A stretch of 64,000 bases of DNA. Origin: an uncultured Planctomycetales bacterium. Lineage in GTDB: Bacteria > Planctomycetota > MHYJ01 > JACPRB01. Of this stretch, positions 467-40,948 are shown piece by piece. Positions within the stretch are counted from its first letter, which is position 1, and every line of letters starts with the position of its first letter. The position numbers and the translations under genes are program-made. The notes below the pieces were generated by a model. It did not search any database and was not told where the DNA came from. It saw only the letters and a program-made list of their open reading frames with translations. The DNA is taken from NCBI GenBank assembly GCA_964468745.1, contig CAYXVY010000140.1:5945-69944 (forward strand), in the 5' to 3' direction.

Positions 467-1843
467 TCACTCACAACCAATCAGATCGCCGACGAGATCA
501 TACTGACGGAATCCAGTCACACGTGCTCGTGCGATCGAACCCTCAGATACCGAGTTTCCATGGAGGGCGATCACGGGGTCAATTTCCGGCGCGTCCCCGT
601 ACGTCCGCCCCTCCCACGTCCGCGCGTTGATCTTCCGTTCGACGAGCACCGGCACCTCGCGTCCGACCCACGAGCGATTGTGCGCATAGGCGATCGTCTG
701 CTGGAGCCGCATCAGCTTGTCCATGCGGCGCAGCTTCTCCGGCTCGGCGATGTGCCCGTCGAGCCCGTCCGCATGCGACCCCGGCTCGCGCGAGAACGCG
801 AACGCCCCGAGCCGCTCGAACTTCATCACCTCGAGGTCGGCGAGCATCCCGTCGAAGTCCTCTTCCGTCTCGCCGGGGAAGCCGACGATGACCGTCGTGC
901 GCAACACGAGCCCGGGGATGCCCGCGCGGAGCTTCGAGATCAGCTCCTTCTGCTTCTCCTCCGTGATCCCGCGCCGCATCAACCGCAGCACGCGCTCCCG
1001 CGTGTGCTGGATCGGCATGTCCATGTACTTCACGACCTTCGGCAGCCGCGCGACGGTCTCGATCAGCCGGTCGGTCACGAACGTGGGATAACAATACAGG
1101 AGACGGAGCCAGTCGATCCCCTCCACGTCGCTCAGCTTCTCGAGCAGCTCGTCGAGGCACAGCTTGCGATAGAGGTCGAGCCCGTAGTTCGTCGTGTCCT
1201 GCGCGATGAGGTTGAGCTCGCGGCACCCGTCCTTCGCGAGTTCCTGCGCCTCGCCGAGAATCGCCTCGATCGGCTTTGAGCGGAACTTCCCGCGGATTTG
1301 CGGGATGACGCAGAACGAGCATGTGTGATTGCACCCCTCGGAGAGGCGCAGGTAGGCGGTGTGCCGCGCTGTCAGGCGGAAGCGGTCGCGGTCGATCTCG
1401 TACTTCGGGAGGTCCGACGAGACCAGGTTGACTTTGCGCTTGCCGACCTTCGCCAGGACGGTCTGGCACACGTCGGCAATCTTCTCTCGGTTGGTAATCC
1501 CAAGCACCGCGTCGACATCCGGGAGTCGCTTCTCGAATTCGGGGCCGTAGCGCTGCGGGAGGCAGCCGGCGACGACAACCGCGCGCAGCTTGCCGCGCTT
1601 CTTCAGATCGACCATCTTGTCGATCGTCTCCATCGACTCGCGCTCGCTCGCCTGCAGGAATCCGCACGTGTTGACGACGACGACGTCCGAGTCCTCGTAC
1701 CGCGAGCAGATCGTGAATCCCGACTGCGCGAGGTGCCCGAGCAGCACTTCGCTGTCGATCAGGTTCTTCGCGCAGCCGAGGCTGACGAAGGAAACCCGGG
1801 GACCTGTCCCGAGCGCAGTCGAGGGGGCCGTTTCGGTGGTCAA
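467..1843 (-). CDS. rimO: Ribosomal protein S12 methylthiotransferase RimO (radical SAM, MiaB-like, C-terminal TRAM domain)
   Basis: ORF 467..2044(-) contains RVSFVSLGCAKNLIDSEVLLGHL (RimO N-terminal UPF0004 signature), a radical-SAM CxxxCxxC (CNHTCSFCVIP) and a C-terminal TRAM-like domain. The first ~80 aa of the track ORF are low-complexity junk. The likely TTG start is near 1843, about 9 nt downstream of a minus-strand TATAAT at 1853-1858. Confidence 0.75.
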   Translation of the reverse strand: MTTETAPSTALGTGPRVSFVSLGCAKNLIDSEVLLGHLAQSGFTICSRYEDSDVVVVNTCGFLQASERESMETIDKMVDLKKRGKLRAVVVAGCLPQRYGPEFEKRLPDVDAVLGITNREKIADVCQTVLAKVGKRKVNLVSSDLPKYEIDRDRFRLTARHTAYLRLSEGCNHTCSFCVIPQIRGKFRSKPIEAILGEAQELAKDGCRELNLIAQDTTNYGLDLYRKLCLDELLEKLSDVEGIDWLRLLYCYPTFVTDRLIETVARLPKVVKYMDMPIQHTRERVLRLMRRGITEEKQKELISKLRAGIPGLVLRTTVIVGFPGETEEDFDGMLADLEVMKFERLGAFAFSREPGSHADGLDGHIAEPEKLRRMDKLMRLQQTIAYAHNRSWVGREVPVLVERKINARTWEGRTYGDAPEIDPVIALHGNSVSEGSIARARVTGFRQYDLVGDLIGCE

Positions 1844-1852
1844 GGGGGGACG

Positions 1853-1858
1853 ATTATA
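1853..1858 (-). promoter_or_regulatory. -10 box (CCTATAATC) with TTGCCC -35 18 nt upstream, driving a leaderless rimO transcript
   Basis: Minus-strand sequence reads cgcccCTATAATcgtcccccc-TTG, and a TTGCCC lies 18 nt upstream of the TATAAT. Confidence 0.5.
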
Positions 1859-1895
1859 GGGGCGATCGCACGGCGGGGGCAACAGGGATGCCCGA

Positions 1896-2495
1896 CTACG
1901 CCTTAAACGTGATCCAGCCGTCCTCCTCGACACGCCAGCCGAGATCCCCTGCGTGCTCCTTGAGGGTTGCAAGGAGACGTCGCGAGGCGGTGTTCTGTCC
2001 GGTCCCCACCCGGGCCCCCGTGATGCCGGGCGACCGCGCCGCATACGCGACGAAGTCCAGAAGCATCATCACCGACAAACCCTGGCCGACATGCGATTCA
2101 TCTACAGCAACCGAGAAGCCGTGCAGCTTCGTCGCGTGACGCTGAAAAAAGACATGCCCGAGGACGATGTCCCCCTTTGGGTATATGAAACCGTCGTACC
2201 CCCGCCACAGCATGACGCGCCAGAGCAGCGCTCCCGGCATCCAGCGCACCCACCGCGTCCGGGTATGGAATCGACCGCCCTCCATGGGATGTCGTATGCA
2301 CGACAGGATGTACTCGCGCACGATTTGAGTCGATCGGCTAACAGGGTCGCTGGCAAGCCACGGCGGCGGCACCTCAAGCGCATCCGTATCGCGCGCGATC
2401 ACCTGCCTCGCGAGCCAGCGCACGTCCGCCCGCCCGGGCCCGGCGCACGGGGATCCGGAAGCATCATCCGCTCGCACTTGGTCCCGCGCAGTCAA
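1896..2495 (-). CDS. Putative GNAT-family N-acetyltransferase (hypothetical)
   Basis: ORF 1896..2519(-). C-terminal half has GNAT-like HVGQGLS...LGW motifs. A minus-strand TATAAT (2503-2508) lies inside the first codons of the track ORF, so the real start is probably the TTG at 2493-2495, 7 nt after the -10 (leaderless). Confidence 0.4.
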   Translation of the reverse strand: MTARDQVRADDASGSPCAGPGRADVRWLARQVIARDTDALEVPPPWLASDPVSRSTQIVREYILSCIRHPMEGGRFHTRTRWVRWMPGALLWRVMLWRGYDGFIYPKGDIVLGHVFFQRHATKLHGFSVAVDESHVGQGLSVMMLLDFVAYAARSPGITGARVGTGQNTASRRLLATLKEHAGDLGWRVEEDGWITFKA

Positions 2496-2502
2496 GGGGC
2501 GG

Positions 2503-2508
2503 ATTATA
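2503..2508 (-). promoter_or_regulatory. -10 box (CCTATAATC) with TTGCTC -35; leaderless start of the GNAT-like gene
   Basis: Minus-strand sequence reads TTGCTC-n18-TATAAT-ccgcccc-TTG. It is the same CCTATAATC-GCCCC module seen at rimO, cysD and the FmdB-like gene. Confidence 0.5.
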
Positions 2509-2574
2509 GGCGCGCTCACAGCGAGGGAGCAAACCCGATTGCCCCCGAAGCCGCTCGCGACTATGCTCCTCGCG

Positions 2575-3351
2575 ATGAATGAGCGGTCACTGCTCTGCGT
2601 GGCGCATCCGGGACACGAGCTGCGCGTCTACGGCTGGCTGGCGCAAGCGCGTCCCATCGTGTGCGTCGTCACCGACGGTTCGGGACGCTCGGGGCGCTCG
2701 CGCATCGAGGCCACACGCGAGACGCTCCTCGAGACGGGGTGCGTCGTCGGGCCCGTTTTCGCGCCGCTCACCGATGCGGATGCCTATCGCGCCGTCACCA
2801 CGGCCGACGCCGCACCGTTCATCCGCATCATCGACGACCTGGTCCGTACGATCGTCGAATGTGACATTCGATGCCTCGTGGGGGACGCCGCCGAAGGATA
2901 CAACCCGGCCCACGACGTCTGCCGCCTCATCCTCAACGGCGCCGGAGAAGCGTGTCGGCGGAGGGGGCATGCGCTGCGAAACCTCGAATTTCCCCTGTTC
3001 GGCGATCCCGCCGCGTGCCCCGACGCGCTTCGCTCGCAGGCCGTCGAATTGCGCCTCAGCGAGGCAATGTTCGAGGCGAAGCTCAAGGCGGCGCGACGCG
3101 AGGCGGATCTCGGCGTCGATGTGGACCAGGCGCTGCGCGAGGCGGGCGCCGACGCTTTCCGCTGCGAAGTCCTGCGGCCCTGCCTCACCACGGGCCCGAC
3201 TGACGGACTCCCGGACGCACCGACCGTCTACGAGCGATACGGCGAGGGGAAGGTGGCGGAAGGCAAGTACGCGACGGTGATCCGGCGACGTGAGCACGTG
3301 CTTCCCTTGGCGGCCGCCCTATGGCGTCACGCGGAGAGCGCCGGCCCATGA
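2575..3351 (+). CDS. PIG-L / LmbE-family N-acetylglucosaminyl deacetylase-like protein
   Basis: ORF 2539..3351(+). LLCVAHPGHELRVYGW near the N-terminus resembles the AHPDDE motif of PIG-L/LmbE deacetylases. The start is uncertain (2539 or 2575). The stop overlaps the next start (ATGA at 3348-3351). Confidence 0.5.
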   Translation: MNERSLLCVAHPGHELRVYGWLAQARPIVCVVTDGSGRSGRSRIEATRETLLETGCVVGPVFAPLTDADAYRAVTTADAAPFIRIIDDLVRTIVECDIRCLVGDAAEGYNPAHDVCRLILNGAGEACRRRGHALRNLEFPLFGDPAACPDALRSQAVELRLSEAMFEAKLKAARREADLGVDVDQALREAGADAFRCEVLRPCLTTGPTDGLPDAPTVYERYGEGKVAEGKYATVIRRREHVLPLAAALWRHAESAGP

Positions 3352-5426
3352 GCCCGCTGCGCGTCCTCATCACCAACATCACCCTGGCCACGCGGACCGG
3401 CACCGAGTTCTTCGTCCGCGATCTGGCGCACGGCCTCAAGGAGGCCGGCCACCTCCCGATGGTCTACACGCCTGCGCCGGGCTCCGTCGCCGACGAGAGC
3501 CGCGCCGAGGGGATCGCGGTGACGGACGACCTCACACGGTTGCCGGAGCGCCCCGACATCATCCACGGCCACCATACCCTGCAGACCATGGAGGCCGTCG
3601 TGCGCTTTCCCGGGGTGCCGGCGATCTTCGTCGCCCACGACCGCCTCGTCTGGCACGACGCGCCGCCCCTGCACCCGCGCATCCGTCGCCATGTCGCCGT
3701 CGACTACAACTGCCTCGATCGGCTGACGATCGACGCGAAGATCGCGGCGGACCGCACGTGCGTGATTCAAAACGCCGTGGATCTCCGAAAATTCCGCCCG
3801 CGCGATCCCCTCCCCCCGCGCCCGCGGCGGGCCCTGCTCTTCAGCAATTACGCCACGGAGGAGGGTGTTGCGGGGGCCGTTCGCGACGCGTGCGCGCGAA
3901 GCGGCATCGCCCTCGACGTCGCGGGTCAACGGCTGGGAAGCGTTTGCGAGCACCCGGAGTCGGTGCTGGGCGGCTACGATCTCGTGTTCGGGAAGGCGCG
4001 TTGCGCGCTCGAGGCGCTCGCCGTCGGGTGCGCGGTCGTGGTCTGCGATTTCCGCGGAGTCGGAGGTCTCGTGACGCCGGTCGACTTCACGCGCATGCGT
4101 CGCCTCAACTTCGGCATGCGGTTGCTCGTCGAGCCCGTAAGCGCGGAGGTGATCGCGCGCGAGATCGGGCGCTACGATCCGGCGGCCTGCACCGAAGTAA
4201 GCGCCGCCGCGCGGCGCGACGCTTCCCTGGAGGGTCAGGTCGCGCAGTTCGTGCGGCTCTACCACGACGTTCTCGCGGAACCGGCGCCGACTGGGTCGGA
4301 AGCGGAGGCCGTCGGGCGTTACCTCGCTTCCCTTATGCCCGCCTGCACGGAAATCGCCGTGCGCGCCGGCGACGGGCTGGCGGGGAGCGTCATCCATCCG
4401 CGCGCCAACCCCGCGCCAGACGAACGTGCGGCCCTGGAGGCCCAGATTGACGCGATCCGCAACTCTGCCGCGATGCGTGTGCGGGATCGCCTGCTCTCGA
4501 TGCCCGGCGTCGGCCCCGTCGCGCTCTACCTCGCCCGCTGGCTCTCGGGAAAGCATGCAAGCACCGGGCTGCGCCATCCGATGCCCGTCATCGTTGGGGT
4601 CCCGCGCTCGGGGACAACGCTCCTGCGGTTCATGCTCGACGCGCACCCGCTGCTGGCGATCCCTCCCGAGACGGGCTGGCTGCCGGAGGTCGCGAAGATG
4701 AAGCCGACGGGCAACGGTCCCGAGGCGCTCCTGAAGACGATCGCCGATCCCCCCAACTGGTCCGACTTCAAGCTGACGCGAGGAGCGCTCGAGGCGGCGC
4801 TGCGGGCCGTGCGGCCGTTCACGATCAGCGACGGCGTGCGCGCCTTCTACCGGCTGTACGCGCTCCGCTTCGATAAGCCGCGCTGGGGCGAGAAGACGCC
4901 GGGATACGGCCTGCACATGCTCGGCATCGAACGCGTGCTCCCGGAGTCGCACTTCATCCACCTCATCCGCGATGGACGCGACGTGGCCGCGTCCGTGCGC
5001 GGGCTGCCGTTTGCGCCCGGAAATACGATGGAGTCGATCGCGAACGATTGGTGCCGTCGCATTCGCGAGACCCGCGCGCAGGCGCGCCGCTGTCGGCGCT
5101 ATCTCGAGATTCGGTACGAAGATTTGATCCTCAAGCCCGCCGAGACCGTCCAGAGCGTGTGCACATTCATCGATCTCGTCTACGATCCCGCCATGCTCGA
5201 GTACTACCGGCGAAGCCGGGGACGCCTGATGGAGCACGAGGCGGGCGTCGCCCCCGATGGCCGCCCGATCACCAAGCAGGAACGCATCGAGAATCAGCGC
5301 TTCACGATGCAGCCGCCCGATGCTGCTCGGATCGGTCGCTGGCGGCAGGCTCTGAGCGCCCAAGAGATCGCGGAGTTCGAACGGGTCGCGGGACCGCTGT
5401 TGCGCGAACTCGAATATGCCAGATAG
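3348..5426 (+). CDS. Bifunctional glycosyltransferase (GT4-like, N-terminal) fused to a PAPS-dependent sulfotransferase domain (C-terminal)
   Basis: ORF 3321..5426(+), probable start MSPLRVLITN at 3348 (translationally coupled ATGA). The N-terminal ~320 aa have GT-B/GT4 features. The C-terminal ~270 aa carry the sulfotransferase 5'-PSB motif (IVGVPRSGTTLLRFML), 3'-PB motif (IRDGRDVAASV) and the typical WCRRIRE...RYEDLI region. Confidence 0.75.
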   Translation: MSPLRVLITNITLATRTGTEFFVRDLAHGLKEAGHLPMVYTPAPGSVADESRAEGIAVTDDLTRLPERPDIIHGHHTLQTMEAVVRFPGVPAIFVAHDRLVWHDAPPLHPRIRRHVAVDYNCLDRLTIDAKIAADRTCVIQNAVDLRKFRPRDPLPPRPRRALLFSNYATEEGVAGAVRDACARSGIALDVAGQRLGSVCEHPESVLGGYDLVFGKARCALEALAVGCAVVVCDFRGVGGLVTPVDFTRMRRLNFGMRLLVEPVSAEVIAREIGRYDPAACTEVSAAARRDASLEGQVAQFVRLYHDVLAEPAPTGSEAEAVGRYLASLMPACTEIAVRAGDGLAGSVIHPRANPAPDERAALEAQIDAIRNSAAMRVRDRLLSMPGVGPVALYLARWLSGKHASTGLRHPMPVIVGVPRSGTTLLRFMLDAHPLLAIPPETGWLPEVAKMKPTGNGPEALLKTIADPPNWSDFKLTRGALEAALRAVRPFTISDGVRAFYRLYALRFDKPRWGEKTPGYGLHMLGIERVLPESHFIHLIRDGRDVAASVRGLPFAPGNTMESIANDWCRRIRETRAQARRCRRYLEIRYEDLILKPAETVQSVCTFIDLVYDPAMLEYYRRSRGRLMEHEAGVAPDGRPITKQERIENQRFTMQPPDAARIGRWRQALSAQEIAEFERVAGPLLRELEYAR

Positions 5427-5472
5427 GTGCTTCCCGAACGCCGCCGGTTCGCTTGATATACTCCGCTGCTGA

Positions 5473-6185
5473 ATGTCGTCTCCCCCGATCAGGATCTCCA
5501 TCGACGTCTCGCACACGTTGACCCACGGCGCCTCGACGGGGATCCAGCGCATCGTACGGAACGTCGCGCGATGGGCCGCGGAAGCAGGCGAGGACGCGGG
5601 GATCGAGGGCCGCCCCATCGTCGTGGACAACCGCAGATCCCGCCGCCCGCGGTGGCCGTACGCCCACGTCCCCTTCATTTCGGCGATAGTAGCCGGCACC
5701 CCGCTACCCCCGGCATCTGCCGAACGCCCAGGCCAGGGAACAAGAAGCGCGGGCACACGCGCCGCAAGCCGTGCGAATCCTGCAGGCAGTTTATGAACGT
5801 CACGAGTCCATTGCGCTGGCTGGGTACCCAGTGGACGCGGCTTAAAGAAGAAGGCTTGGCCGCACGAACCTTGGCGCTGGGCAAAAAACTTTTGAGACCC
5901 GTGCTGCGCGGCTGCTTCCGCTTTGCCGGTTCACGCCCGCGCCTGAAACGGGCAGGCGCACGGCTGGCAAGAAATTCCGGCCTGTATGGGCCTCTGCATT
6001 CGCTGTACCTGCGCTTATCCGGCAAGGCCCTTCCGGTCGCGATCCTGGATCACGAGCTGCTGTTCAATGACGATGCGGAGGAAACCTCGCCCGCCAGGAT
6101 GCCGGGGAAACTGACCCTCGACGAACTCCTTTCGCGCATTCGCGCGGAACTGGCAGACCCCAAGAAACAGGGACAGCCACGGTGA
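5473..6185 (+). pseudogene. Frameshifted, truncated N-terminal fragment of a GT4 glycosyltransferase; a paralog of the 50311..51639 gene
   Basis: Two ORFs in different frames (5473..5796 and 5793..6185) resemble the N-terminal domain of the GT at 50311..51639 (ISIDVSHTLTHGASTGIQRIVRNVARW vs LIECTASFTSGLNTGVQRVMRGLANN; LLRPVLRGCFRFAGSRPRLKRAG vs LRAVLPSGVARSVIRTLKRAE). No catalytic C-terminal domain follows. The AT-richer block begins near 5800. Confidence 0.4.
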
Positions 6186-7240
6186 CGCCACAAGGTTCCG
6201 CACAATACACTTCGCACCGTGACCCGCTTCGGGTTGCCGTCCTGACAGCCGGACCCTCCACCGGAGAGCAGGGTGGAGCCGAGCGTCTCTATCAAACGCT
6301 GCTCAAGGGTCTGCTCGAGATCGGGTGCAGGGCGGAATTGATCCCGGTATCCGCAGACGAGCGCTCATTCGAGCAGATCGTGAGGAACTACGACCAAGTC
6401 CAACGCATGGACCTCTCGGCGTTCGACGTGGTCATCTCGACAAAAGCCCCGACCTTTGCGGTGGAGCACCCGAACCATGTGATGTACCTCACGCACACGA
6501 TCCGGGTGTACGACGACATGTTCCACGATGCGTTTCCCAAGCCTCATCCCCGGCATTGGGTCGAGCGCGCCAAGTTGCATGCAAGAGACTTCCAGTGCAT
6601 GTCCCGCATCAAGGCGAAGTTCGCTCTAAGTCATGAAGTCGCGAGGCGGCTGTACCGCTGGCGCGGGATCAGGGCCGAGGTATTGCACCCGCCCCTTGGC
6701 GTCCAGGGCTTCCGGCAAGGCGAGACAGGGGACTACTTCTTCCTGCCCGGACGCCTGCATCCTTGGAAGCGTGTCGACCTGCTCATCGAGGCGGTTCGGC
6801 ATTCATCGATGCCGCTGCGTCTCATCATCGCCGGCACCGGCGAAGCGGAGGCAGACCTGAGGCGCCGGGCCGCAGGCGATCCGCGCATCCGATTGGCCGG
6901 GCACATCAGCGATGAGGAATTGTTCGTGTACTATTCCGGCGCGCTGGCCATACCGTTCGTGCCTTTGCGGGAAGACTACGGCTACGTAACGCTCGAAGCG
7001 TTCGCCAGCGGCAAGGCCGTCGTGACGTGCAGCGATTCCGGCGAACCGACCCATTTCGTGAAGCACGGAGAAACCGGCCTTGTCAGTGCCCCGGACGCGC
7101 ACAGCCTGTGCGAATCGCTGGAATGGCTCTTTACCCATCGTGATGACGCCCGGAACATGGGACAAAAACGGGAAGACGCTGCTCGATGGCATGGCCTGGT
7201 CCAAGGTTGCCTCCCGGCTTGTGGACGCCGCGCTGGACAA
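6182..7240 (+). CDS. Glycosyltransferase family 4; C-terminus requires a +1 shift at an A5 run (about 7161-7168) to read the typical GT4 end
   Basis: ORF 6182..7954(+). The first ~330 aa are a good GT4 (RVAVLTAGPSTGEQGGAERLY...EAFASGKAVVTCSDSGEPTHFVKHGETGL). After DDARNMGQ the track frame becomes Arg-rich junk, whereas the +1 frame gives NGKTLLDGMAWSKVASRLVDAAL, a typical GT4 C-terminus. The shift maps to ggacaaaaacggg. Confidence 0.6.
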
Positions 7241-9299
7241 GACGCCCGCAACTCCGCCCGCACCGACAAGAGTCACCGTGCTCGACATGCAACCCATCGA
7301 CCCACCGGTCGGCGGAGGACGGCTGCGCCTGCTCGGTGTCTACCACAACCTTGGCGACAGGGTGGATTGCACGTACGTAGGCTCCTACGACTGGCCGGGG
7401 GAACGGCACAGAAAACACCGGCTGAGCGCCTGCCTCGAAGAAATCGACGTTCCTCTCAGCGACGAACACCACGCCGCGGCGCGGGCTTGGAGCGCCCATG
7501 CGGGCGGCAAGACCGTCATCGACATTTCGTTCGGCAAGCTTGGGAAGCTGTCCACCGAATACCTGGACGCCGCCCGCCGAAATATTCGCGATGCCGACAT
7601 CGTGGTCTTCTCCCATCCCTGGGTCTACCCGCTGGTCGCAGGGGATCTCTCACCGCGTCAGATCGTCGTCTACGACTCCCAGAATGTCGAAGGCTACCTT
7701 CGCGCCCAGTTGCTCGACGAGAGCAACGGGGCCGAGGCCAAGCTGTTGCGGCAGGTGGTCGACGACGAATACCAGCTGGGCTGCCGCGCGGACCTGATTC
7801 TCGCGTGCTCGCACGAGGACCTGCTTCGCTTCCAGCGGATTTACGAGTTCCCGCCGGACAGGATACGGGTCGTGCCGAACGGAGTGATGGCGTTCGCACA
7901 TCCGGTGCCAAGCCGCGAAGACAAGTCGAAGGCAAAAGCCGGACTGAAGCTTGAGAAAGGCCGTCTGATAGCGGTCTTCATCGGCAGCGCCTACGGACCC
8001 AATATCGAGGCCGGAAAGTTCATCATGGAGCACCTGGCGGACACGCTGCCGGACGTCACCTTCGTGCTTGCGGGAGGCGTCGGAGCCGAAGTGCCGGGCC
8101 GCAAGCGCAACGTCATCGTCACCGGCGGCCTGAACGAACAAGAAAAGCTGCGGTGGCTCTCCGCAGCCGACATCGCCATCAATCCCATGTTTTCGGGCTC
8201 GGGCACCAACATCAAGATGTTCGACTTCATGGCGATGGCGTTGCCTACCGTGACCACGGCCACCGGCGCGCGCGGCATCGATACCGGTGGACGTGACGCA
8301 TTGATCATCGCGGAACCCAGCACAGCGGCGTTCACCGATGCCATTCAGCGGCTCCGCGACGAAGAGACGCGAAACCGGATGGGCCGCGAGGCGCGTGCAT
8401 GCGTCGAGGAAGGCTACGCCTGGGAACGCATTTCCGGCCTTACAGGCCGGATGCTCGTGGCCAGGCATGCGCTGGCCGGACAGCCGCGCCCCATGTTCTC
8501 CGTGGTGATCCCCAGTTACGAGCGCCACCCCAAGCTGGATACGTTGATGGTCAGCTTGCAGAAACAGGTGGAAAGGGACTTCGAGGTCATCATCGTGGAC
8601 CAGACCGCGTCGCGCTGGCCTGGCGCGGAGAAAGAGTACGGATTCCCGTGCCTCTACTACCCCTCTTCGGTCAAGGGCGCGGTCCGGGCGCGCAACACCG
8701 GCGCCATGCTGGCGCAGGGCAGCGTAATCGCGTTCACCGACGACGACTGCATGCCGACCGAGGGCTGGCTGGCCAATGCCCGCAAGTACTTCCGCAGCCG
8801 CCGCGTGGTGGGCGTCGAAGGCATGATCGTATCCGACCACCTGGGCGAGTCCGATTGGCGCCCCGTCACCAATGTCGGCTTCGAAGGCGCCGGGTTCATG
8901 ACCGCCAACCTGATGGTGCGCAGCGACGTCTTCCAGAAACTCGGCGGCTTCGACCTGCAGTTCGACCGCCCGCACTTTCGCGAAGACACCGACTTCGGCT
9001 GGCGCATGACGGGCGCCGGCTTGGTGCCGTACGCGAAGGACGTCACCGTTTTCCATCCGGCCCAGCCCCGCTCCCTGGAGCGGGAATCAGCGGGTACTCG
9101 CGCCCGTCTCTTCCAGAAAGACGCATTGCTGTACCGCAAGCATCCGGACTCTTACCGACGGCTGTTCATGAAAGAGCGCCATTACCGGATCACGCCGGGG
9201 TTCAGGGAAAACGTGCTTGCCGGATTCTGCGCAACGGGGGACAAGATGCCGGAATGGATGGAGAAGCTCATCGGGAATGAACCTGATCCCATGTGCTGA
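7080..9299 (+). CDS. Bifunctional glycosyltransferase: GT4 domain (N-terminal) + GT2 domain (C-terminal); true start uncertain (possibly the ATG at 7287, or fused to the upstream GT4 via frameshift)
   Basis: GT4-like region (RIRVVPNGV...FIGSAYGPNIEAGKF...INPMFSGSGTNIKMFDFMAMALPTVTT) is followed by a GT2 domain (MFSVVIPSYERHPKLDTLMVSLQKQ...FEVIIVDQTAS...FTDDDCMP). No stop separates it from the upstream GT4 in the shifted frame. Confidence 0.7.
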   Translation: MSVPRTRTACANRWNGSLPIVMTPGTWDKNGKTLLDGMAWSKVASRLVDAALDKTPATPPAPTRVTVLDMQPIDPPVGGGRLRLLGVYHNLGDRVDCTYVGSYDWPGERHRKHRLSACLEEIDVPLSDEHHAAARAWSAHAGGKTVIDISFGKLGKLSTEYLDAARRNIRDADIVVFSHPWVYPLVAGDLSPRQIVVYDSQNVEGYLRAQLLDESNGAEAKLLRQVVDDEYQLGCRADLILACSHEDLLRFQRIYEFPPDRIRVVPNGVMAFAHPVPSREDKSKAKAGLKLEKGRLIAVFIGSAYGPNIEAGKFIMEHLADTLPDVTFVLAGGVGAEVPGRKRNVIVTGGLNEQEKLRWLSAADIAINPMFSGSGTNIKMFDFMAMALPTVTTATGARGIDTGGRDALIIAEPSTAAFTDAIQRLRDEETRNRMGREARACVEEGYAWERISGLTGRMLVARHALAGQPRPMFSVVIPSYERHPKLDTLMVSLQKQVERDFEVIIVDQTASRWPGAEKEYGFPCLYYPSSVKGAVRARNTGAMLAQGSVIAFTDDDCMPTEGWLANARKYFRSRRVVGVEGMIVSDHLGESDWRPVTNVGFEGAGFMTANLMVRSDVFQKLGGFDLQFDRPHFREDTDFGWRMTGAGLVPYAKDVTVFHPAQPRSLERESAGTRARLFQKDALLYRKHPDSYRRLFMKERHYRITPGFRENVLAGFCATGDKMPEWMEKLIGNEPDPMC

Positions 9300-12382: not shown

Positions 12383-14284
12383 CTACGTGGCCTGCTCCGC
12401 CTCCAGCCGCCGGAAGTGCGCCATGATCTGCGCGACGCACGCATCCACGTCCGCCTTGTCCGTGCGCACGACGAGATCAGCCTTCTCCGGCGCCTCGTAT
12501 GGCGCGTCGATCCCCGTCACCGACTTCACCTGCCCAGCCCGCGCCTTCTTGTAGATCCCCTTCGGATCGCGCTCCTCACAGACCGCGAGCGGGCAGTCGA
12601 CGAACACCTCGACGAACTCCCCCTGCCGCAGCCCGCCCCGCACGCGGTCGCGGTCCGCCTTCATCGGCGAAATTAGTGCGACAAGCACGATGAGGCCGGA
12701 GTCGCCGAACAGCTTCGCCACCTCGCCCACGCGACGCACGTTCTCCGCCCTGTCTTCCTCGCTGAACCCGAGGTTCGCATTGAGGCCGTGCCGCAGATTG
12801 TCTCCGTCGAGCAGGTACGTCTGGTATCCCGCGTCGAACAGCCGCCGCTCCAGCGCGACGGCGAGCGTGGACTTCCCCGACCCCGAGAGACCCGTGAACC
12901 AGAGGACGCGCCCATGATGGCCGGTGCGCCGCGCGCGCTCGTCCCGCGAGACCTGGCCCGACACGAACGAGATGTTATGGCTCTTGACGCCCGACAACTC
13001 CGAGCGCAGGTCCTTCGTCGCGGCCGTCGAGATGATCCCTCCCCCCTCGATCCGCGCCCCCGCGTGCAGCACGAAACGGCCGAGCTGCGGCACCCCGCCG
13101 AAGTCGTCGATCGCGATCGGCCGCTGCGTCTCGATCGTGACCTCCGCGATCTGGTTGCGCGCCACCGACTGCGCCTCGACGGCACCGAGCGTCGCAACGT
13201 CCACCACCTGGTGGATCTTCACGACGCGGCAGATGACTTCCTGCGACGTGATCTTCAGCAGGTACTCCTTGCCGGGCATGAGGTCCTGTTTCCCCAGCCA
13301 GAACAGGCGCGCGTCGAATCGGTCCGCCTCGACCGGCGCGTTCTCGAGATGCGACGCGATCTGCCCGCGCTCGACGAAGAGCTGCGCGTCGAGCGTGATC
13401 CCGACCGAGTCGCCCGCGTGCGCCTCCGTCACCGGCGGCGCGCTCCAGCGCTCGATCGTCTTGACGAAGCCGGTCTTGTTCCACGGCGAGAACACGAGCT
13501 GATCCCCGACGCGAAGCGTGCCGGACTCGATGCGGCCGGCGAAGATGCGCGTCGTTTCGTTCTGGCGGTAGACGTCCTGGATCGGGAAGCGCAGCGGGCC
13601 GTCGGTGATGGGGACGCGCGACTTGAAGCCGTGCATCGCCTCGGCCACCGTCGGGCCGGTGTACCACGGCATGTCCGTCGCGCGCGCGACGACGTTCGCG
13701 CCCGCCTTCGCGGAGATCGGAATGAACACCGATTTGCCCGCACCGGTTGCCTTCAGGTAGGCCCCGTATTCCTTCTCGATGTCGCGGAAGGTCTGCTCCG
13801 ACCACCCGACGAGATCCATCTTGTTGACGAGCACGGCGACCTGGTGGAGCCCGAGCAGGCGCAGCAGCAGCGCGTGACGGCGCGACTGCTCGCGGATCCC
13901 CTCGCGCGCGTCGACGAGGACGAGCGCGGCGTCGGCCGTCGAAGCCCCCGTGATCATGTTCTTCAGGAATTCTTCGTGCCCGGGCGCGTCGATGATGACG
14001 AACGGGCGTCCGTTGACGTGCATCCAGACGTGCGCGGCGTCGATCGTGATCCCCTGGTCGCGCTCGGCCTGCAGCGCGTCGAGGGCGAACGCGAACTCGA
14101 ATTCGAGACCGCGCTTCTCGGAGATCTTCCGGATCTGTTCGAGCTTCCCTTCCGGGAGCGAACCGGTGTCGTGCATGAGCCGGCCGACGAACGTCGACTT
14201 GCCGTGGTCGACATGGCCGAGCATCACCACGCGGACCGGTGCGGTCGTGGGGGTGACGGCCTTTTCTTTGGTAGTCACGGGCAT
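12383..14284 (-). CDS. cysNC: Bifunctional sulfate adenylyltransferase subunit 1 (GTPase, CysN) fused to adenylylsulfate (APS) kinase (CysC); NodQ-like
   Basis: N-terminal GTPase motifs ([23 protein letters not shown]) of CysN/EF-Tu-like. C-terminal APS kinase ([39 protein letters not shown]-loop kinase signature). 633 aa. Confidence 0.9.
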
Positions 14285-14557: not shown

Positions 14558-15367
14558 TTACATGTATCCGGAGGTGCGAAGACGCTCGAACGCGTCCTCC
14601 GATTCCTGGTCCTGTGCTCGGCCCGATCTCTCGCTCGTCTTCGTGCGCCGCAGCTCCTCGACGATCTCCGCGACGCTCGTGGCGGTGGACTCGATCATGC
14701 CGGTGCACGGCGCGCATCCGAGGCTGCGGTAGCGGCGTCCGTCCTTCGCGTAGTAGAGGTCGATGATCGGGATCGACTCGCGCTGGATGTACTCCCACAC
14801 GTTGAGTTCGGTCCAGTGGAGCAGCGGATGAATGCGTATGTGCGTGCCGGCCGGGAATTCGGTCTGGTACTGGTCCCAGAATTCCGGGGGCGCGTCGCCG
14901 AAGTTCCACGTGAGGTTCTTGTCGCGCGGCGAGAAGTAGCGCTCCTTCGCGCGCGTGCTCTCCTCGTCGCGGCGGATGCCGAGGAGCAGGCCGTGATACC
15001 CCTTGAGTTCGAGGACCTGCTTGAGGCCCTCCGTCTTGAGCGAGGAGCAGCAGACGACGCGGCCGAGGGTGTGGTTCATCCCGCCGGCGAGGGCGGCGAC
15101 GTTCTTGCCGACCACGAGGTCGAGCCCCAGCTCCTTCGCGACGCGGTCGCGGTACTCGATCATCGACGGGATTTTGTAGGTCGTGTCGACGTGGATGACG
15201 GGGAACGGGACGGCGCCGAAGAATGCCTTGCGGATGAGCCAGAGCAGGACGGTCGAATCCTTGCCGATCGACCAGAGGCACCCGAGGTTTTTCAGCTTCG
15301 CGCGCGCCTCGCGGATGATGTAGACGCTCTGCGCTTCGAGGGCGTCCAAGGGGTCGCGGTGAGCCAT
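14558..15367 (-). CDS. cysD: Sulfate adenylyltransferase subunit 2 (CysD; PAPS reductase-like ATP sulfurylase small subunit)
   Basis: ORF 14558..15367(-). [12 protein letters not shown] (PP-loop), LGIRRDEE, and overall CysD architecture. The ATG is preceded by TTGAGA-n17-TATAAT-n11. Confidence 0.9.
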
Positions 15368-16872: not shown

Positions 16873-17628
16873 ATGCCCTCCTGGTTCGAGCTCCTGCGCG
16901 CGCTCGTCGCGAAGGACTTCAAGGTCCGCTACAAGAGCACGGCGCTGGGGTTCGTGTGGTCGATCGCGAACCCGGTCATGTTCGGCCTGACGTTCTACGT
17001 GGTCTTCGAGAACGTCTTCCGCGGCGGGCAGAAGAACTTCCTCGTCTTCCTGCTCGCGGGGATGTTCCCGTGGCAGTGGTTTGCGAGCACCGTGGGCGGC
17101 GCGCCCGGCACGTTCGTCGGCAACGCGGGCCTGATCAAGAAGGTCCGGTTCCCGTGGATGCTGCTCCCGACGGCGGCCCTTGTCAGCAACCTCCTGCACT
17201 TCCTGCTGGCGCTGGCGGTGGCCGTCCCGCTCCTCGGGATGAAGGGGATCTGGCCGACACCGGTCTGGCTGATCGGCATTCCGGCCCTGCTCCTCATCCA
17301 GGGGGCGCTGACACTGGGAGTCGCGCTGCTGATCGCATCGATCAACGTCATCTTCCGCGACCTCGAGTACATCACGCAGATCGTGCTGCAGTTGGTATTC
17401 TTCCTCACGCCGATCTTCTACTCGGCAACGGCGCTGCCGGAGGGGACGCGGTCGATCCTGCGCTGGAATCCGATGTGCTACGTGATTCCGGCGTGGCAGG
17501 AGCTGGTGCTGGAGGGCCGCATGCCCTGGCAGACGGCGGGGATCGGCGCGGCGATCGCGGCGGCGACGTTGCTGATCGGCTACGGAGTCTATCGACGGAT
17601 GGAGTGGCGGCTGGCGGAGTCGCTATAG
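16873..17628 (+). CDS. wzm: ABC-2 type polysaccharide export permease (Wzm/TagG/KpsM-like)
   Basis: 251 aa, 6 predicted TM segments, ABC-2 family signature region (FVWSIANPVMFGLTFYVVF...). Confidence 0.8.
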   Translation: MPSWFELLRALVAKDFKVRYKSTALGFVWSIANPVMFGLTFYVVFENVFRGGQKNFLVFLLAGMFPWQWFASTVGGAPGTFVGNAGLIKKVRFPWMLLPTAALVSNLLHFLLALAVAVPLLGMKGIWPTPVWLIGIPALLLIQGALTLGVALLIASINVIFRDLEYITQIVLQLVFFLTPIFYSATALPEGTRSILRWNPMCYVIPAWQELVLEGRMPWQTAGIGAAIAAATLLIGYGVYRRMEWRLAESL

Positions 17629-17765
17629 AGACACATGGGTTTTCTAACGCAGAGATCGCTGATTTGTTTTGAGAGCCGGAGAGGCCCATCTCAAAGAGTT
17701 AGTCTGCGGTCTCTCCTTGTCCTCTTCTGCGCCCTCGGCGTTATTCGGGAAGATTGGGCGCGATC

Positions 17766-18527
17766 ATGAGTATCACGGCTGACCCCGCGGTTGAATTCCA
17801 CGACGTCGTCAAACGCTTCCACCGCGTCCACGCCCCGATGGGATTGAAGTACGCGATGCTGCATCCCGCGGAGTTCGTCCGCGTGTGGCGCTCGGCCCCG
17901 ACCTTCACGGCGCTCGACGGGGTGTCCTTCACGGTGAAGCGCGGAGAGTCGCTGGGGATCTGCGGCCGAAACGGCAGCGGGAAGAGCACGACGATGACGT
18001 TGATGGCGGGCGTAATGCGTCCGACGAGCGGCCGCGTGGTCGTGCGCGGGAGGATCGCGCCGCTGCTGGCGCTCGGCGCCGGTTTTCATCCGGACTTGAG
18101 CGGGTCGGACAACATCACGCTGAACGGGCTGCTCCTCGGCCTGTCCCGGCGGGAGATCGCGGAGCGTCGCGAGGCGATCATCGAGTTCGCCGGGCTGCGC
18201 GAGTTCATCAACGAGCCGATGCGCACATACTCCTCCGGCATGTTCATGAGGCTGGGGTTCGCGGTGGCGGCGCATACCGATCCCGAGGTCCTGCTGGTGG
18301 ACGAGCTGTTGTCGGTCGGCGACTTCGAGTTCCAGGCGAAGTGCAAGGCGAAGATGCACGAGTTCCGGAAGTCCGGCGTCACGATCGTCTTCGTGAGTCA
18401 CACGGTGGCGGAGATGGAAGCGATGTGCGATCGCGCGATCTGGCTCGACGGCGGGAAGGCGCGCATGGACGGCACGCCGGTCGAGGTGGACAAGGCTTAT
18501 CGCGGCGCGCTGGGGGCGGCGTCGTAG
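17766..18527 (+). CDS. wzt: ABC transporter ATP-binding protein for polysaccharide export (Wzt/TagH/KpsT-like); no C-terminal carbohydrate-binding extension
   Basis: Walker A GRNGSGKST, ABC signature YSSGMFMRLGFA, Walker B LLVDELLSVGD, H-loop. Track ORF starts at 17754 (TTG); the ATG at 17766 (MSITADPAVEFHDV) is preferred. Confidence 0.85.
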   Translation: MSITADPAVEFHDVVKRFHRVHAPMGLKYAMLHPAEFVRVWRSAPTFTALDGVSFTVKRGESLGICGRNGSGKSTTMTLMAGVMRPTSGRVVVRGRIAPLLALGAGFHPDLSGSDNITLNGLLLGLSRREIAERREAIIEFAGLREFINEPMRTYSSGMFMRLGFAVAAHTDPEVLLVDELLSVGDFEFQAKCKAKMHEFRKSGVTIVFVSHTVAEMEAMCDRAIWLDGGKARMDGTPVEVDKAYRGALGAAS

Positions 18528-24778: not shown

Positions 24779-25945
24779 CTACCGTCTGAGCCGCAGCAGA
24801 GCTCGCGTTGTTTCCCCCTCATGGACTGCTTCGCTGAGGATCTCCATGCGGAGTCCAATCGACGCTCCGAGTTTCTTGAAGGCATTCAGATTCCACTCGA
24901 CAAGTGCGCGCGTTCCGCGGGTTTCAGAGACATCCTTCGCACAAAATATATCGGCGAGAATGCGACCTCCATCTCCCATGCACCTCGTGGCGTCAGTTAG
25001 GAGTCCGCGAGACTCATGCGGATAGGTGTGCGTTAGGACGCTCATGAAGAGCACAAAATCGAAGGGTCCTCCAACAATTTCGAGTGGCAGACTGGCGTCC
25101 ATATTCCGCGTGAAGGAAAATGTGGAGCGACTGTAGCGCTGTCTGCAGAAAGCCACAGGCTTTTCCGCGATATCTGTACCGCAGTAGCGCCCCGTCGAAT
25201 CCAAGAAGCTGTGTAGTGGTCGTGTTAACAGCCCTGTTCCGCAACCCACATCGAGTACGCGGGAATTGCGCGCCAATCCAAATTCCATCAACATGCGCAA
25301 CTTGTCGTCGCCCAGTGTGACGAACTGTTCCTCGGACGGAACTCCGACGACCGACCAGTAGTCGCGAGTAAAGTCGGCGTTTTCCCAGACAGTGGCATAT
25401 TCGCCAAAATCGCCAGGCCGCGCTCCAGCGATTTCAACTGTGATCGGTGAGACTCTTGAGCCCCGATCCTTGAACCAGGTAATGTTTTCGTGAACTAAGT
25501 CAAATTCGAGCGTACACAGACTTGGAGTGGCAGGCGCCTGAACTGTCGCGCGAACTAAGACCTCTGCGCCGGAATCAATATCGGTTGGAAAATCGGTCCG
25601 AATCCCGTCATAGACAAGTACTTTCCCGTCTTGTCGCAGCCAATGGTATGCCAGCCGAACGGCATTTGGTTTGTTTCCAGCAGGCCACCGATGGGGAGTA
25701 GCGTTACGAACGCGCACGGGCACTTGAACAATCTCTCCTTCGTGCAGCTTGGCAGGTGCCTCTAGTACGTGGATTTGGGCGCGGTATGCCACGCTGGGCA
25801 TGCTGTCCAGTGGCAAGGTGGGGTCGCCCAACTGCAGTTCTCCTTTTTCTGAGTCCGACTTAGTATCTGAGTTTTGCAGCAGATGCAAGAAGCGATTCGC
25901 CGAGAGCCTTCGAATCTCGCGAGCTATTTCTTCGCCGGTTGACAT
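24779..25945 (-). CDS. Class I SAM-dependent methyltransferase (C-terminal) with a ~190-aa N-terminal domain of unknown function
   Basis: VLDVGCGTGLL (SAM-binding motif I) and downstream motifs (FDFVLFMSVLTH). Noticeably AT-richer than the background. Confidence 0.7.
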   Translation of the reverse strand: MSTGEEIAREIRRLSANRFLHLLQNSDTKSDSEKGELQLGDPTLPLDSMPSVAYRAQIHVLEAPAKLHEGEIVQVPVRVRNATPHRWPAGNKPNAVRLAYHWLRQDGKVLVYDGIRTDFPTDIDSGAEVLVRATVQAPATPSLCTLEFDLVHENITWFKDRGSRVSPITVEIAGARPGDFGEYATVWENADFTRDYWSVVGVPSEEQFVTLGDDKLRMLMEFGLARNSRVLDVGCGTGLLTRPLHSFLDSTGRYCGTDIAEKPVAFCRQRYSRSTFSFTRNMDASLPLEIVGGPFDFVLFMSVLTHTYPHESRGLLTDATRCMGDGGRILADIFCAKDVSETRGTRALVEWNLNAFKKLGASIGLRMEILSEAVHEGETTRALLRLRR

Positions 25946-25982: not shown

Positions 25983-27293
25983 ATGGATAACCACTTGCAT
26001 CGCGTTGAGATTCAGCACGTTGCCCCGACCACCGTTGATCCCTTGGTGCTCTGGGGGGCAGGGCTGAACTCGCCCACGCTTGGTACGAGCGGCAGTTACT
26101 CAATTGGAATTGCAGGTTGGGTATTACCGCGCGCGGGACAAAGGGCTAAAGTCCAGTTCACTTGTGGACGCCGAATCCTCAGTGAACTAGAAATTGACCG
26201 GTGGCGACCTGACGTGCTGAAGCACTTCCCCGATATTCCCGGTGCCGAGCATTGCGGATTCTACGGGTCGCTACGGACGGTAGAACTCCCTAGTCAGTTC
26301 GATATCCAGATCTCCATCAAGTTGGAAGGCCACGGATTGCTTCCCATGACGACCATTCGCGGCTGTCGCAATTCCATCGTTCCTGCGCCGGTGGAATCAC
26401 TGCGTCCAATCTTTATTACATCGTTAGGGCGCTGCGGCTCGACCTATCTCGCCCTGCTGCTAAAAAACCATCCCGAGATAGTAGTTGCTGGCCCCTTCCC
26501 GTACGAAAACCACGTACTCCCTTACTGGGTTTCAGTTTTCGAGACCCTCTCAGCTCCACAGTCTTTCTTAAAGCAGCTCGCCTCGCCCCTGCGTGGACAC
26601 TATTGGTGGCTGGGCGATGCGCGCGACTCAGTAGAGACCTACCTTGAGCGCTTTCCCAACGTAGATCTCGTTGGTGGCGACGCGGTTGACGCAGCCGCAA
26701 CGTTCTGTCGTGCTCGCGTTTACGCGTACGATGCACAACTTGCAGCACGCGTCGGCAAGCCGAAGGCTGTTTATTTCGCCGAGAAGTTACCTCCGTCCGG
26801 CCCCAACCCCCTCGCGGAACAACTGTTCCCCACGACGCGTGAAATCGTACTTCTTCGCGATCCCCGAGACATTATCGCGTCCGTGCTCGCGTTCAATCGA
26901 AAGCGGGGTTTCGCATCGTTTAGCCGCGAACTCGTTCAGAGCGATCTAGAGTATGTGGCTTCCATTCGACATCAGTGGCTCGCGCTGGCCGTCGGATGGC
27001 GGAACCGAAAGACAAATGCGATAGTTGTACGTTACGAAGATCTCATGGAGAAACGTGACGAGACCGTCCGAAGCGTCTTTGGTGCATTGAATCTGTCAGC
27101 TTCTGATGACGTGCTTCGACACGTGGTGGAAGCCTCCGCACAGGAAGATGTCGCTCTTCAAGAAGCTCATATGACATCAACAAGCACTGAAAGTTCGATT
27201 GGCAGATGGAAGCGGGAGCTTCCAAGTGAGCTCCAGAAAGCCTGCAGGGACACCCTAGGTGACGCGCTGGAGGAGTTCGGTTACGCAGTGTAA
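25983..27293 (+). CDS. Sulfotransferase family protein (PAPS-dependent)
   Basis: 5'-PSB motif ITSLGRCGSTYLALLL and 3'-PB motif LLRDPRDIIASV. Track ORF 25749..27293 overlaps the convergent methyltransferase gene by ~200 bp. Starting at the internal Met (MDNHLH..., 25983) removes the overlap and the low-complexity N-terminus. Confidence 0.75.
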   Translation: MDNHLHRVEIQHVAPTTVDPLVLWGAGLNSPTLGTSGSYSIGIAGWVLPRAGQRAKVQFTCGRRILSELEIDRWRPDVLKHFPDIPGAEHCGFYGSLRTVELPSQFDIQISIKLEGHGLLPMTTIRGCRNSIVPAPVESLRPIFITSLGRCGSTYLALLLKNHPEIVVAGPFPYENHVLPYWVSVFETLSAPQSFLKQLASPLRGHYWWLGDARDSVETYLERFPNVDLVGGDAVDAAATFCRARVYAYDAQLAARVGKPKAVYFAEKLPPSGPNPLAEQLFPTTREIVLLRDPRDIIASVLAFNRKRGFASFSRELVQSDLEYVASIRHQWLALAVGWRNRKTNAIVVRYEDLMEKRDETVRSVFGALNLSASDDVLRHVVEASAQEDVALQEAHMTSTSTESSIGRWKRELPSELQKACRDTLGDALEEFGYAV

Positions 27294-34501: not shown

Positions 34502-34540
34502 GGCTGAATCGGGCATCCTATCACCGTCGCGCACGAGCCG

Positions 34541-35512: not shown

Positions 35513-35640
35513 TCTCTCAGGCCCTTTTAACGCCGAGAGCGCAGACGCGCTGCAGAAGAGAGCGCAGGTTTGTGGTGGAACGTGGGGCGTGGTCCTTCCG
35601 GAACTTCCGGACAACCGCTGAGCGCGCAGGGGCAAGCAGA

Positions 35641-35845
35641 GGGGTTCCGGGCGCTGAGGTGTCCGCCGCCGTGCGGGCAACGCCCGCACGAGCGGCCACG
35701 CAGAAGCCGTTTCCGAAACGCCCAGCCCTTCTTCGGGAGCGTTTCGGAAACGGCTTCTGCGTGGCCGCGCCCGCGCTACGCGCGGGCCGGCGGACCCGAA
35801 AGAAGCTCTCCGCGCCCCAAGCGACTCCTGTCCTCCTCTGCGTTC
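35641..35845. repeat. Copy 2 of the ~200-bp palindromic structured repeat element; lies between the convergent GT2 and GT2-GT-C genes
   Basis: Perfect 22-bp inverted repeat (gcagaagccgtttccgaaacgc / gcgtttcggaaacggcttctgc, ~35700-35760), loop ccagcccttcttcggga. Arms ggggttccgggcgctgaggtgtccgccgccgtgcgggcaacgcccgcac and gcgcgggccggcggacccgaaagaagctctccgcgccccaagcgact match copy 1 (inverted). Confidence 0.75.
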
Positions 35846-35893
35846 TCTGCGGTTGTCCGGCAGGCGAGCGGAGATTTGATGCCCCGCGTGTCT

Positions 35894-40940: not shown

Positions 40941-40948
40941 CGGGGGCC

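Follow-up and report, generated by a model that had tools for sequence, protein, structure and literature searches.

The subject of this analysis is a window of 64,000 nucleotides (nt) of DNA from an uncultured Planctomycetales bacterium (assembly GCA_964468745.1, contig CAYXVY010000140.1, positions 5,945 to 69,944 of the forward strand; coordinates below are those of the window), and within it a gene at 3348..5426 on the plus strand whose product of 692 amino acids (aa), followed by a stop, joins a glycosyltransferase (GT) domain of the GT-B fold, a helical linker and a sulfotransferase (ST) domain. The open reading frame (ORF) as listed extends over 3321..5426 (+), with an internal ATG at 3348 that yields the 692-aa product. 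Judging from the sequence, this ATG is the likely start of the fusion gene, since the homologues open at an equivalent M-x-x-LRVL and since it shares an ATGA with the stop of the upstream gene. That upstream gene, termed the partner below, occupies 2539..3351 (+) and codes for a protein of the LmbE/PIG-L fold, with 270 aa if translated from the TTG at 2539 and 262 aa from the ATG at 2563, which is the NCBI call; through the ATGA overlap the two genes are translationally coupled. The fusion protein bears no signal peptide, its N-terminus leading directly into the first GT strand, and a scan of 2300-6300 for promoters and terminators returned nothing above chance.

An earlier, sequence-only reading of this DNA had described a single polypeptide of ~690 aa with a GT-B-like and a sulfotransferase domain, and this description is borne out by structure prediction, homologues and an independent assembly. 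An AlphaFold2 model built on 69 sequences (mean predicted local distance difference test score, pLDDT, of 91) resolves residues 1-330 and 410-692 as two folded domains with pLDDT >90 and a low-confidence helical linker in between. Twenty full-length homologues with 38-61% identity are alignable end to end with the fusion protein, and the same ORF is contained in an independent Logan assembly (L086, run SRR9952630), which matches the window at 99.978% identity across 4,622 nt with 0 gaps. Thus, there is no stop or frameshift that would divide the two halves into separate genes, and the possibility of a fusion created by a frameshift or an assembly artefact is ruled out by the end-to-end homologues and the gap-free independent assembly.

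The C-terminal domain (aa 408-692; 4569..5423, +) was identified as an ST dependent on 3'-phosphoadenosine 5'-phosphosulfate (PAPS) by Pfam and phmmer searches, Foldseek comparisons and its invariant residues. As had been anticipated, its matches to both Sulfotransfer_3 (PF13469; aa 414-613, E=4e-29, 102.8 bits against a cut-off of 27) and Sulfotransfer_1 (PF00685; E=8e-7, 29.1 bits against a cut-off of 22) exceed the respective cut-offs, and the two PAPS-binding motifs that had been read from the sequence proved exact: the 5'-phosphosulfate-binding (5'-PSB) motif VPRSGTTLL lies at aa 418-426 (nt 4599-4625) and the 3'-phosphate-binding (3'-PB) motif IRDGRDVAAS at aa 540-549 (nt 4965-4994). In phmmer alignments both motifs pair with their counterparts in TPST2, and E441 (nt 4668-4670, in PPETGW) aligns with the catalytic glutamate of the TPST2 GEETR motif. 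Across 21 fusions PRSGTTLLR, E441/T442, K510 and RDGRD..S are invariant or nearly so, and from these conserved motifs a competent PAPS enzyme is expected. Searches of PDB sequences with phmmer recovered the OLS/CurM ST and TPST1/2 with E about 1e-11, in agreement with Foldseek; the mycobacterial glycolipid-type ST Stf9 is a weaker Foldseek match, and among the NCBIfam profiles only NoeE gave a weak, local match (30 bits against a cut-off of 500). With TPST1/2 and the CurM/OLS STs as the nearest solved relatives, the earlier label of a carbohydrate-type ST is not derivable from homology. The domain matches these relatives best in both sequence and fold and has the 5'-PSB, the catalytic glutamate and the 3'-PB in common with them, but they show 20-26% identity and act on peptide tyrosine or beta-hydroxyacyl-acyl carrier protein (ACP). 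Substrates of this type are unlikely here because the ST is fused to GT and glycan modules, and the presence of GT2, Wzt_C and NKWYS domains in fusions of its relatives continues to point to a glycan substrate.

The N-terminal domain (aa 1-326; 3348..4325, +) is a divergent GT4-like GT-B domain according to Pfam, Foldseek, hhalign and its conservation pattern. The Pfam profile Glyco_transf_4 matches aa 18-147 (E=1e-8, 35.9 bits against a cut-off of 28.5). Foldseek searches recovered retaining GT4 enzymes at 13-18% identity (E 1e-11 to 1e-7), including ManT (7qsg; 1e-11), MshA, BshA, PimA, PglA and the tetrahydrobiopterin glucosyltransferase; together with the AlphaFold2 pLDDT >90 these matches establish the two-Rossmann GT-B fold for residues 1-330. 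Likewise, an hhalign comparison with a canonical GT4 from the same window gave a probability of 93%. The family is marked by the motifs NxTLAxR(S/T)GTE, IHGHH (nt 3561-3575), HD, FSNY (nt 3840-3851) and FGKARCALEA (nt 3987-4016). About 50 positions are invariant or near-invariant across the 69 sequences, among them N10, R16, E20, H73, H76, H97, D119, R125, D145, R152, K216, R218, E222 and R289, and in the profile-profile alignment the invariant E222 (nt 4011-4013) falls on the second glutamate of the E-x7-E motif. From this pattern the domain looks like an active but non-canonical GT-B enzyme.

The two domains are joined by the low-confidence helical linker (aa 327-407; 4326..4568, +; AlphaFold2 pLDDT 40-70), whose terminal conserved motif, NSAAMRVRDRLL, lies at nt 4461-4496. 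Comparison with its relatives shows that it is a shortened remnant of the coiled-coil tail borne by the stand-alone members of the family. A check of the databases for the same architecture found it in 27 of the top 120 hits, with linkers of 35-358 aa, so that the 81 aa of the window protein are among the shorter ones. A further 10 hits have the reverse order, ST-GT-tail, in which the catalytic domains are a mere 10-22 aa apart and the coil is C-terminal, and 83 consist of the GT and a tail of 38-225 aa alone. We also considered that the coiled coil might serve as a ruler between the two catalytic sites, an idea that is weakened by the narrow gap and the C-terminal coil of the ST-GT forms. When 1.84 billion representatives were searched exhaustively, the clusters (50% identity) with E<=1e-30 numbered at least 1,559, and at least 19 fused clusters (50% identity) stand among the best 150 representatives. 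The fusion, which had been called unusual, is therefore uncommon but recurrent: it exists in both domain orders alongside split versions, it has originated at least two times, and fused and split forms interconvert, which argues for a functional link between the GT and the ST.

The partner owes its recognition to fold rather than sequence. A fold search assigned it an LmbE-type Rossmann-like fold, with MshB, BC1534, Dbv21 and LnmX among the top matches, and provided its only structural link, for a search with the profile of its family found no PDB sequence. There was no Pfam match at E<=10 except noise and no NCBIfam match, and it falls outside the PIG-L profile. Its family comprises >2,000 proteins that all lack a functional annotation and a Pfam domain, and none of 150 representatives is fused to a GT or an ST. 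The motifs AHPGHE, TDGSG, D-x2-EG-Y-N-P-x-HD and HVLP are invariant; AHPGHE and N-P-x-H-D stand where canonical LmbE proteins have AHPDD(E) and HxDH, and the usual general-base aspartate is a glycine. On account of these motif positions H23, H26 and D126 could form a putative His/His/Asp metal site. The protein is probably a metal-dependent de-N-acetylase, a previously unrecognised member of the LmbE fold.

A scan of the GTDB representative genomes yielded 80 further loci, all of which were scanned with hidden Markov models (HMMs) for the partner, the GT and the ST. They span Acidobacteriota, Planctomycetota, Cyanobacteria, Gemmatimonadota, Desulfobacterota, Methylomirabilota, Verrucomicrobiota, Chloroflexota, Gammaproteobacteria, Armatimonadota and others. 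The partner adjoins the GT in 72 of the 80 GT-bearing loci (90%), mostly 6-45 bp upstream on the same strand. Five homologue contigs were checked one by one, including a Planctomycetaceae metagenome-assembled genome (MAG) and the complete genome of Nostoc sp. TCL26-01; in all five the partner lies immediately upstream of the GT or two genes away, and the other neighbours are unrelated housekeeping genes. No further neighbour family is found in more than 13 of these 80 loci, genes for GT2, GT4, flippases and methyltransferases occur near the module in 6-11 of them each, and no cysDN cluster is recurrent in the homologue loci. Two candidates for wider associations were rejected: an MsbA-type ATP-binding cassette (ABC) exporter as conserved neighbour, where the supporting 13-locus cluster turned out to reflect heterogeneous, generic ATPase similarity at variable distances; and a role in defence, prompted by restriction-modification, toxin-antitoxin and Cas3 neighbours in two loci (L001 and L004), where these neighbours are non-recurrent and neither protein has a PADLOC match. 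In three loci a component lies in frame-shifted fragments, the ST in L045 (2706-3602) and the partner in L075 (7226-7974) and L070 (7023-7937); these may be pseudogenes or MAG assembly errors.

An ST of the same subfamily (E about 1e-115) is present in ~29 of these GT-bearing loci, a fraction that is inflated by the fact that one of the scan patterns was an ST motif. Among named carriers, Nostoc sp. TCL26-01 and N. minutum NIES-26 have the partner and the GT only, the Gemmataceae isolate CJuql4 (L007) has the fused form, and Laspinema palackyanum D2a has the ST only. Six loci have ST, partner and GT genes in this order in an operon (L015, L019, L028, L035, L068 and L082), a complete Smithellaceae chromosome (L006) has a split GT and ST pair with a gap of 9 bp, and in other loci the ST is a separate gene on the opposite strand, 0.3-4 kb away. 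The ST is thus an accessory module, which may be fused C-terminally, fused N-terminally, encoded by a separate gene of the operon or absent from the locus. Relatives extend this repertoire with proteins in which the GT and its tail are fused to a hexapeptide-repeat acyltransferase (LbH) domain (P0254, P0299 and P0336), or which combine ST, GT and LbH (P0253), GT and GT2 modules (P0314 and P0364), GT2 and ST (P0317) or ST and an NKWYS capsule domain (P0310). One of them, P0292, unites a complete Wzt (ABC ATPase and Wzt_C carbohydrate-binding domain) with an ST 53% identical to that of the window. This hints that in some systems the sulfate may be a chain-end cap that is read by the exporter. 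Four other proteins (P0243, P0245, P0270 and P0272) carry 2-4 tandem copies of the ST subfamily, from two in P0245 to four in the 1,298 aa of P0243, which suggests multiply sulfated products.

A further tailoring enzyme is occasionally encoded in the module. In L013 a gene for an LpxD-family N-acyltransferase (6927-7991; LpxD N-domain with 48.7 bits against a cut-off of 30.8) stands between the partner and the GT, and in L034 (3758-4711), L043 (11962-12954) and L083 (9356-10327) such a gene stands directly beside the ST. These acyltransferases and the ST tend to be found together, not in place of one another. A further paralogue lies in or adjoins the module in L028 (9197-10240), and the gene is ST-adjacent in 4 of these 5 loci. 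In the window a tblastn search found neither an LpxD-like gene nor a methyltransferase gene of the type seen in the module. Separately, in the locus (L005, 5987-7995) of the ST-GT protein P0017, genes for a Gfo/Idh/MocA oxidoreductase and a DegT-type aminotransferase separate the partner from the ST-GT gene; both enzymes are of kinds commonly involved in making amino-sugar nucleotides.

Several established pathways that install glucosamine depend on the pairing of a GT4 with an LmbE-type enzyme, namely MshA/MshB, BshA/BshB, PIG-A/PIG-L, and NeoM/BtrM with NeoL/BtrD; in these N-acetylglucosamine (GlcNAc) is transferred and the acetyl group is then removed. By analogy with these pairs, the reading that we prefer, in which we place about even confidence, is that the fusion protein is a real bifunctional cytoplasmic enzyme, encoded by the second gene of a two-gene operon with its LmbE-fold partner, and that it represents one configuration of a widespread modular pathway of N-acetylhexosamine (HexNAc) transfer, de-N-acetylation and sulfation. 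As the GT4-like and LmbE-fold pairing is the signature of glucosamine-installing pathways, we propose three steps. At the cytoplasmic face of the membrane, the GT-B domain would transfer a HexNAc to an acceptor, the sugar being most likely GlcNAc and its donor UDP-GlcNAc; the partner would strip off the N-acetyl group; and the fused ST would sulfonate the resulting aminosugar residue using PAPS. PAPS is cytoplasmic and the fusion protein lacks a signal peptide, and for these reasons all the steps would take place on the cytoplasmic side and precede export. The fusion would hold the ST next to the site where its substrate is formed. Where an N-acyltransferase is also encoded, its co-occurrence with the ST suggests that the sulfate is probably placed on a hydroxyl; the LpxD-type enzyme of such loci fits a re-acylation of the freed amine, as in the succession of LpxC and LpxD. 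In the window module N-sulfation would be possible. The earlier view that sugar addition and sulfation take place in one step had overlooked the partner, which is coupled to the fusion gene here and accompanies the GT in 90% of the loci, and which argues for a multi-step route. Accordingly, the picture of one enzyme and one step should be replaced by that of a modular operon of partner, GT and ST, in which the fusion is one of several ways of attaching the ST.

Several observations weigh against this reading. No match to Glycos_transf_1 was found in the fusion protein with Pfam, even at E<=1; the first glutamate of E-x7-E is replaced by a conserved phenylalanine, F214; and FSNY takes the place of the canonical G-R...K diphosphate motif. 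Because all three are missing, the chemistry of the GT domain may differ from that of GT4 enzymes, and the label GT4-type, as well as the expected matches to GT profiles, holds for the fold and for the N-terminal half with its Glyco_transf_4 match but not for the C-terminal half. In that half the motif combination that defines CAZy GT4 (E-x7-E with G-R/K...K) is incomplete, with K216 and R218 invariant nearby. Moreover, most loci with partner and GT have no ST within ~8 kb, and sulfation is therefore not intrinsic to the core pathway of these two proteins. Finally, the closest solved STs act on peptides and acyl-ACPs.

Comparison with known systems points to a shared logic. As in the established GT4 and LmbE pairs, the genes for a GT-B, GT4-like transferase and an LmbE-fold enzyme are adjacent and co-directional. 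Unlike in those pairs, both proteins are too divergent for the Pfam profiles PIG-L and Glycos_transf_1: the partner has AHPGHE and NPxHD in place of AHPDDE and HxDH, and in the GT, FSNY replaces GR..K and F214 the first glutamate. The module also adds a coiled-coil tail to the GT, the ST and sometimes an LpxD-type acyltransferase. Nod-factor tailoring (NodC/NodB/NodA/NodH with NodPQ) and lipid A synthesis (LpxC/LpxD) resemble the order proposed here of HexNAc transfer, de-N-acetylation, N-acylation and PAPS-dependent sulfation. Like the Nod-factor genes, those of the window have CysD/CysNC-type PAPS genes nearby, and some module loci have an LpxD-family acyltransferase. Yet the components are non-homologous, with a GT-B in place of the GT2 NodC and an LmbE fold in place of the CE4 NodB or LpxC, and, with no acyltransferase detected by tblastn in the window, the resemblance is one of logic only.

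A third comparison is with the N-deacetylase/N-sulfotransferase (NDST) enzymes. In NDST1 the deacetylase, which is fused to an ST, forms a (beta/alpha)7 barrel that resembles Agd3/CE4 and has a His-His-Asp triad (PMC10864358). Both systems would couple a deacetylase activity, here a predicted one, to a PAPS-dependent ST in the company of a third, Rossmann-like domain. However, a CE4/Agd3-like deacetylase fused to an ST is absent from the module: its deacetylase-like protein has the LmbE fold and is a separate polypeptide, its ST is closest to TPST/CurM, and the domain fused to that ST is a GT-B. NDST1 would be a functional analogue if the ST of the window N-sulfonates the freed amine. The GT would then add GlcNAc, the partner bare the amine and the ST N-sulfonate it to N-sulfoglucosamine (GlcNS), making the module a bacterial counterpart of NDST assembled from unrelated folds. 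The window encodes no N-acyltransferase competing for the amine, by tblastn with the LpxD-like gene, but we give this specific version only a slim chance; to our knowledge, GlcNS is not established in bacterial biosynthesis. Overall, since the partner does not qualify as PIG-L by sequence, the GT lacks E-x7-E and the Glycos_transf_1 match, and the NDST1 deacetylase is a CE4-like barrel, the module belongs to none of these families; its logic is that of the glucosamine-installing GT4 and LmbE pairs with added tailoring, resembling that of Nod-factor tailoring and of NDST.

The surroundings of the operon in the window bear on what its product might decorate. As had been noted earlier, genes for PAPS synthesis lie in the same locus, with cysNC (CysN-CysC) at 12383-14284 and cysD at 14558-15367, both on the minus strand and both identified with Pfam and NCBIfam; they are a plausible local supply of PAPS, outside the conserved module. 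They are followed on the plus strand by genes for the permease (Wzm; 16873-17628) and the ATPase (Wzt; 17754-18527; 257 aa, with ABC_tran only and without Wzt_C) of a glycan ABC exporter, and many multi-domain GT2/GT4 genes are found in the window. The second, stand-alone ST that had been pointed out is present at 25983-27293 (+). It belongs to a different subfamily with a 140-aa N-terminal extension and is only distantly related to the fused ST (E=2e-8 against the HMM of the fused ST, as compared to about 1e-115 for the module STs). Divergently adjacent to it is a gene for an S-adenosylmethionine-dependent methyltransferase (24779-25945, -), and the two could be tailoring or terminating enzymes of the glycan handled by the ABC transporter. 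On the preferred reading, the product of the window module would plausibly decorate or cap the glycan of this adjacent cluster, with PAPS from CysD and CysNC, a link that would be specific to the window. For a capping role there is some support from the fusion of Wzt_C and ST in a relative, with the short linker and the absence of Wzt_C from the local Wzt against it.

Capping also lies at the heart of the alternative that survives best, though we consider it unlikely. The coiled-coil proteins WbdD and WbbB terminate ABC-transporter-dependent O-antigen assembly with a methyl, a phosphate or 3-deoxy-D-manno-oct-2-ulosonic acid (Kdo). A comparable chain terminator or length regulator would use the ST, with or without a terminal sugar added by the GT, to cap the non-reducing end with sulfate, with the coil as scaffold or ruler. 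Like these, the window protein and its relatives are cytoplasmic and built from several modules, in which a modifying enzyme is joined to a coiled coil and GT modules. The family extensions measure 35-358 aa, P0016 is annotated with coiled-coil families, Wzm/Wzt and multi-domain GTs are neighbours in the window, and P0292 unites an ST and a complete Wzt. However, the terminating chemistry of WbdD and WbbB is not sulfation, the local Wzt has no C-terminal cap-binding domain, and the linker is short and of low confidence. The ST-GT proteins, with their C-terminal coil, leave no room for a spacer between catalytic domains, and most module loci lack an ABC glycan exporter, the apparent ABC cluster being heterogeneous. 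Such a role can coexist with the preferred reading if the cap is a sulfated aminosugar.

Quite unlikely, by comparison, is an elongation enzyme that would serve the neighbouring polysaccharide cluster on its own, adding sugar and sulfate in one pass with no need of a partner. The gene does adjoin a large glycan cluster of the ABC-transporter-dependent type, which comprises many multi-domain GT2/GT4 genes, cysD/cysNC and a second ST, and GT2, GT4 or flippase genes occur near the module in 7-11 of the 80 loci. These are few, and homologue modules are mostly found among housekeeping genes, as in five of the five inspected loci, so that the earlier placing of sulfation during the chain assembly of a local glycan is not supported. 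What is conserved is the unit of partner and GT, not that of GT and glycan cluster; the partner is translationally coupled in the window, and cysDN is a non-recurrent neighbour.

Slimmer still is the case for a catalytically dead GT-B domain that would bind or scaffold the substrate, as does the non-catalytic N-terminal domain of NDST1, and leave the ST as the only enzyme. The missing Glycos_transf_1 match, the phenylalanine at the first glutamate and the lost G-R...K would suit such a domain. Against this, numerous polar residues do not vary among the 69 diverse sequences, the ribose-binding glutamate is kept, and most members of the family are stand-alone GT-tail proteins, so that the domain has a function of its own. 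We give the least credence to an ST whose substrate is not a carbohydrate but, for instance, a tyrosine in a peptide, a hydroxyacyl group or a lipid group, with the module modifying a protein or lipid, for although TPST1/2 and the CurM/OLS STs are its closest solved relatives by sequence and fold and the link to LpxD-type acyltransferases suggests a lipidated product, the ST is fused to a GT-B, those of its relatives to GT2, Wzt_C and NKWYS capsule domains, and Stf9 and, weakly, NoeE also match.

Full-text literature searches found no paper on a GT-ST fusion or on the combination of LmbE, GT and ST, and in the synechan pathway the ST genes are described as separate from the GT genes. The loci described above define a widespread, unannotated pathway module in at least 10 phyla with three parts: an LmbE-fold family unseen by Pfam and NCBIfam, a non-canonical GT-B with a coiled-coil tail, and a mobile TPST-like ST. 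Bacterial sulfated glycoconjugates are poorly understood, and soluble bacterial STs are sought for heparin-like and other sulfated polymers. A passage in one report names the active expression of NDST in bacteria as a key bottleneck (PMC13353177). A natural bacterial trio of transferase, deacetylase-like protein and ST offers directly testable candidates. More broadly, the module is a lead to an uncharacterised, phylogenetically broad sulfated-aminosugar pathway, and may point to an unrecognised class of glycolipids or glycan caps with sulfated aminosugars in Planctomycetota, Acidobacteriota and Cyanobacteria.

The remainder of the window offers a few minor observations. Directly downstream of the fusion gene, in 5473-9299, the coding frame as judged from the guanine-plus-cytosine (GC) content by codon position switches at ~5650 (0 to 2) and at ~7060-7100 (1 to 2), and the switch at ~5650 is also present in the independent assembly L086. 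The ORF at 6182-7954 starts as a complete GT4 with an intact E-x7-E and continues stop-free into the GT4 and GT2 ORF at 7080-9299; this may be one frameshifted three-domain glycosyltransferase, or a pseudogene. A second glycan-assembly region extends over 34500-51700, with GT2 genes, a GT2 and PMT_2 gene, a GT4 gene and further GT2 and GT1 genes, together with a Bac_transf priming transferase (39495-40940), a Wzx-type flippase (42037-43569), and a GDP-mannose 4,6-dehydratase with two epimerases (46505-49396); most of the window is therefore a glycan island. The ORFs at 52070-53503 (477 aa) and 56006-58588 (860 aa) show a good codon-position GC signal and no Pfam match. At the other end of the window a planctomycete source is suggested by RimO, the ribosomal protein S12 methylthiotransferase encoded at 467-2044 (-) (458 aa in the NCBI call), whose closest named relatives, with 66-81% identity, come from Planctomycetota MAGs.

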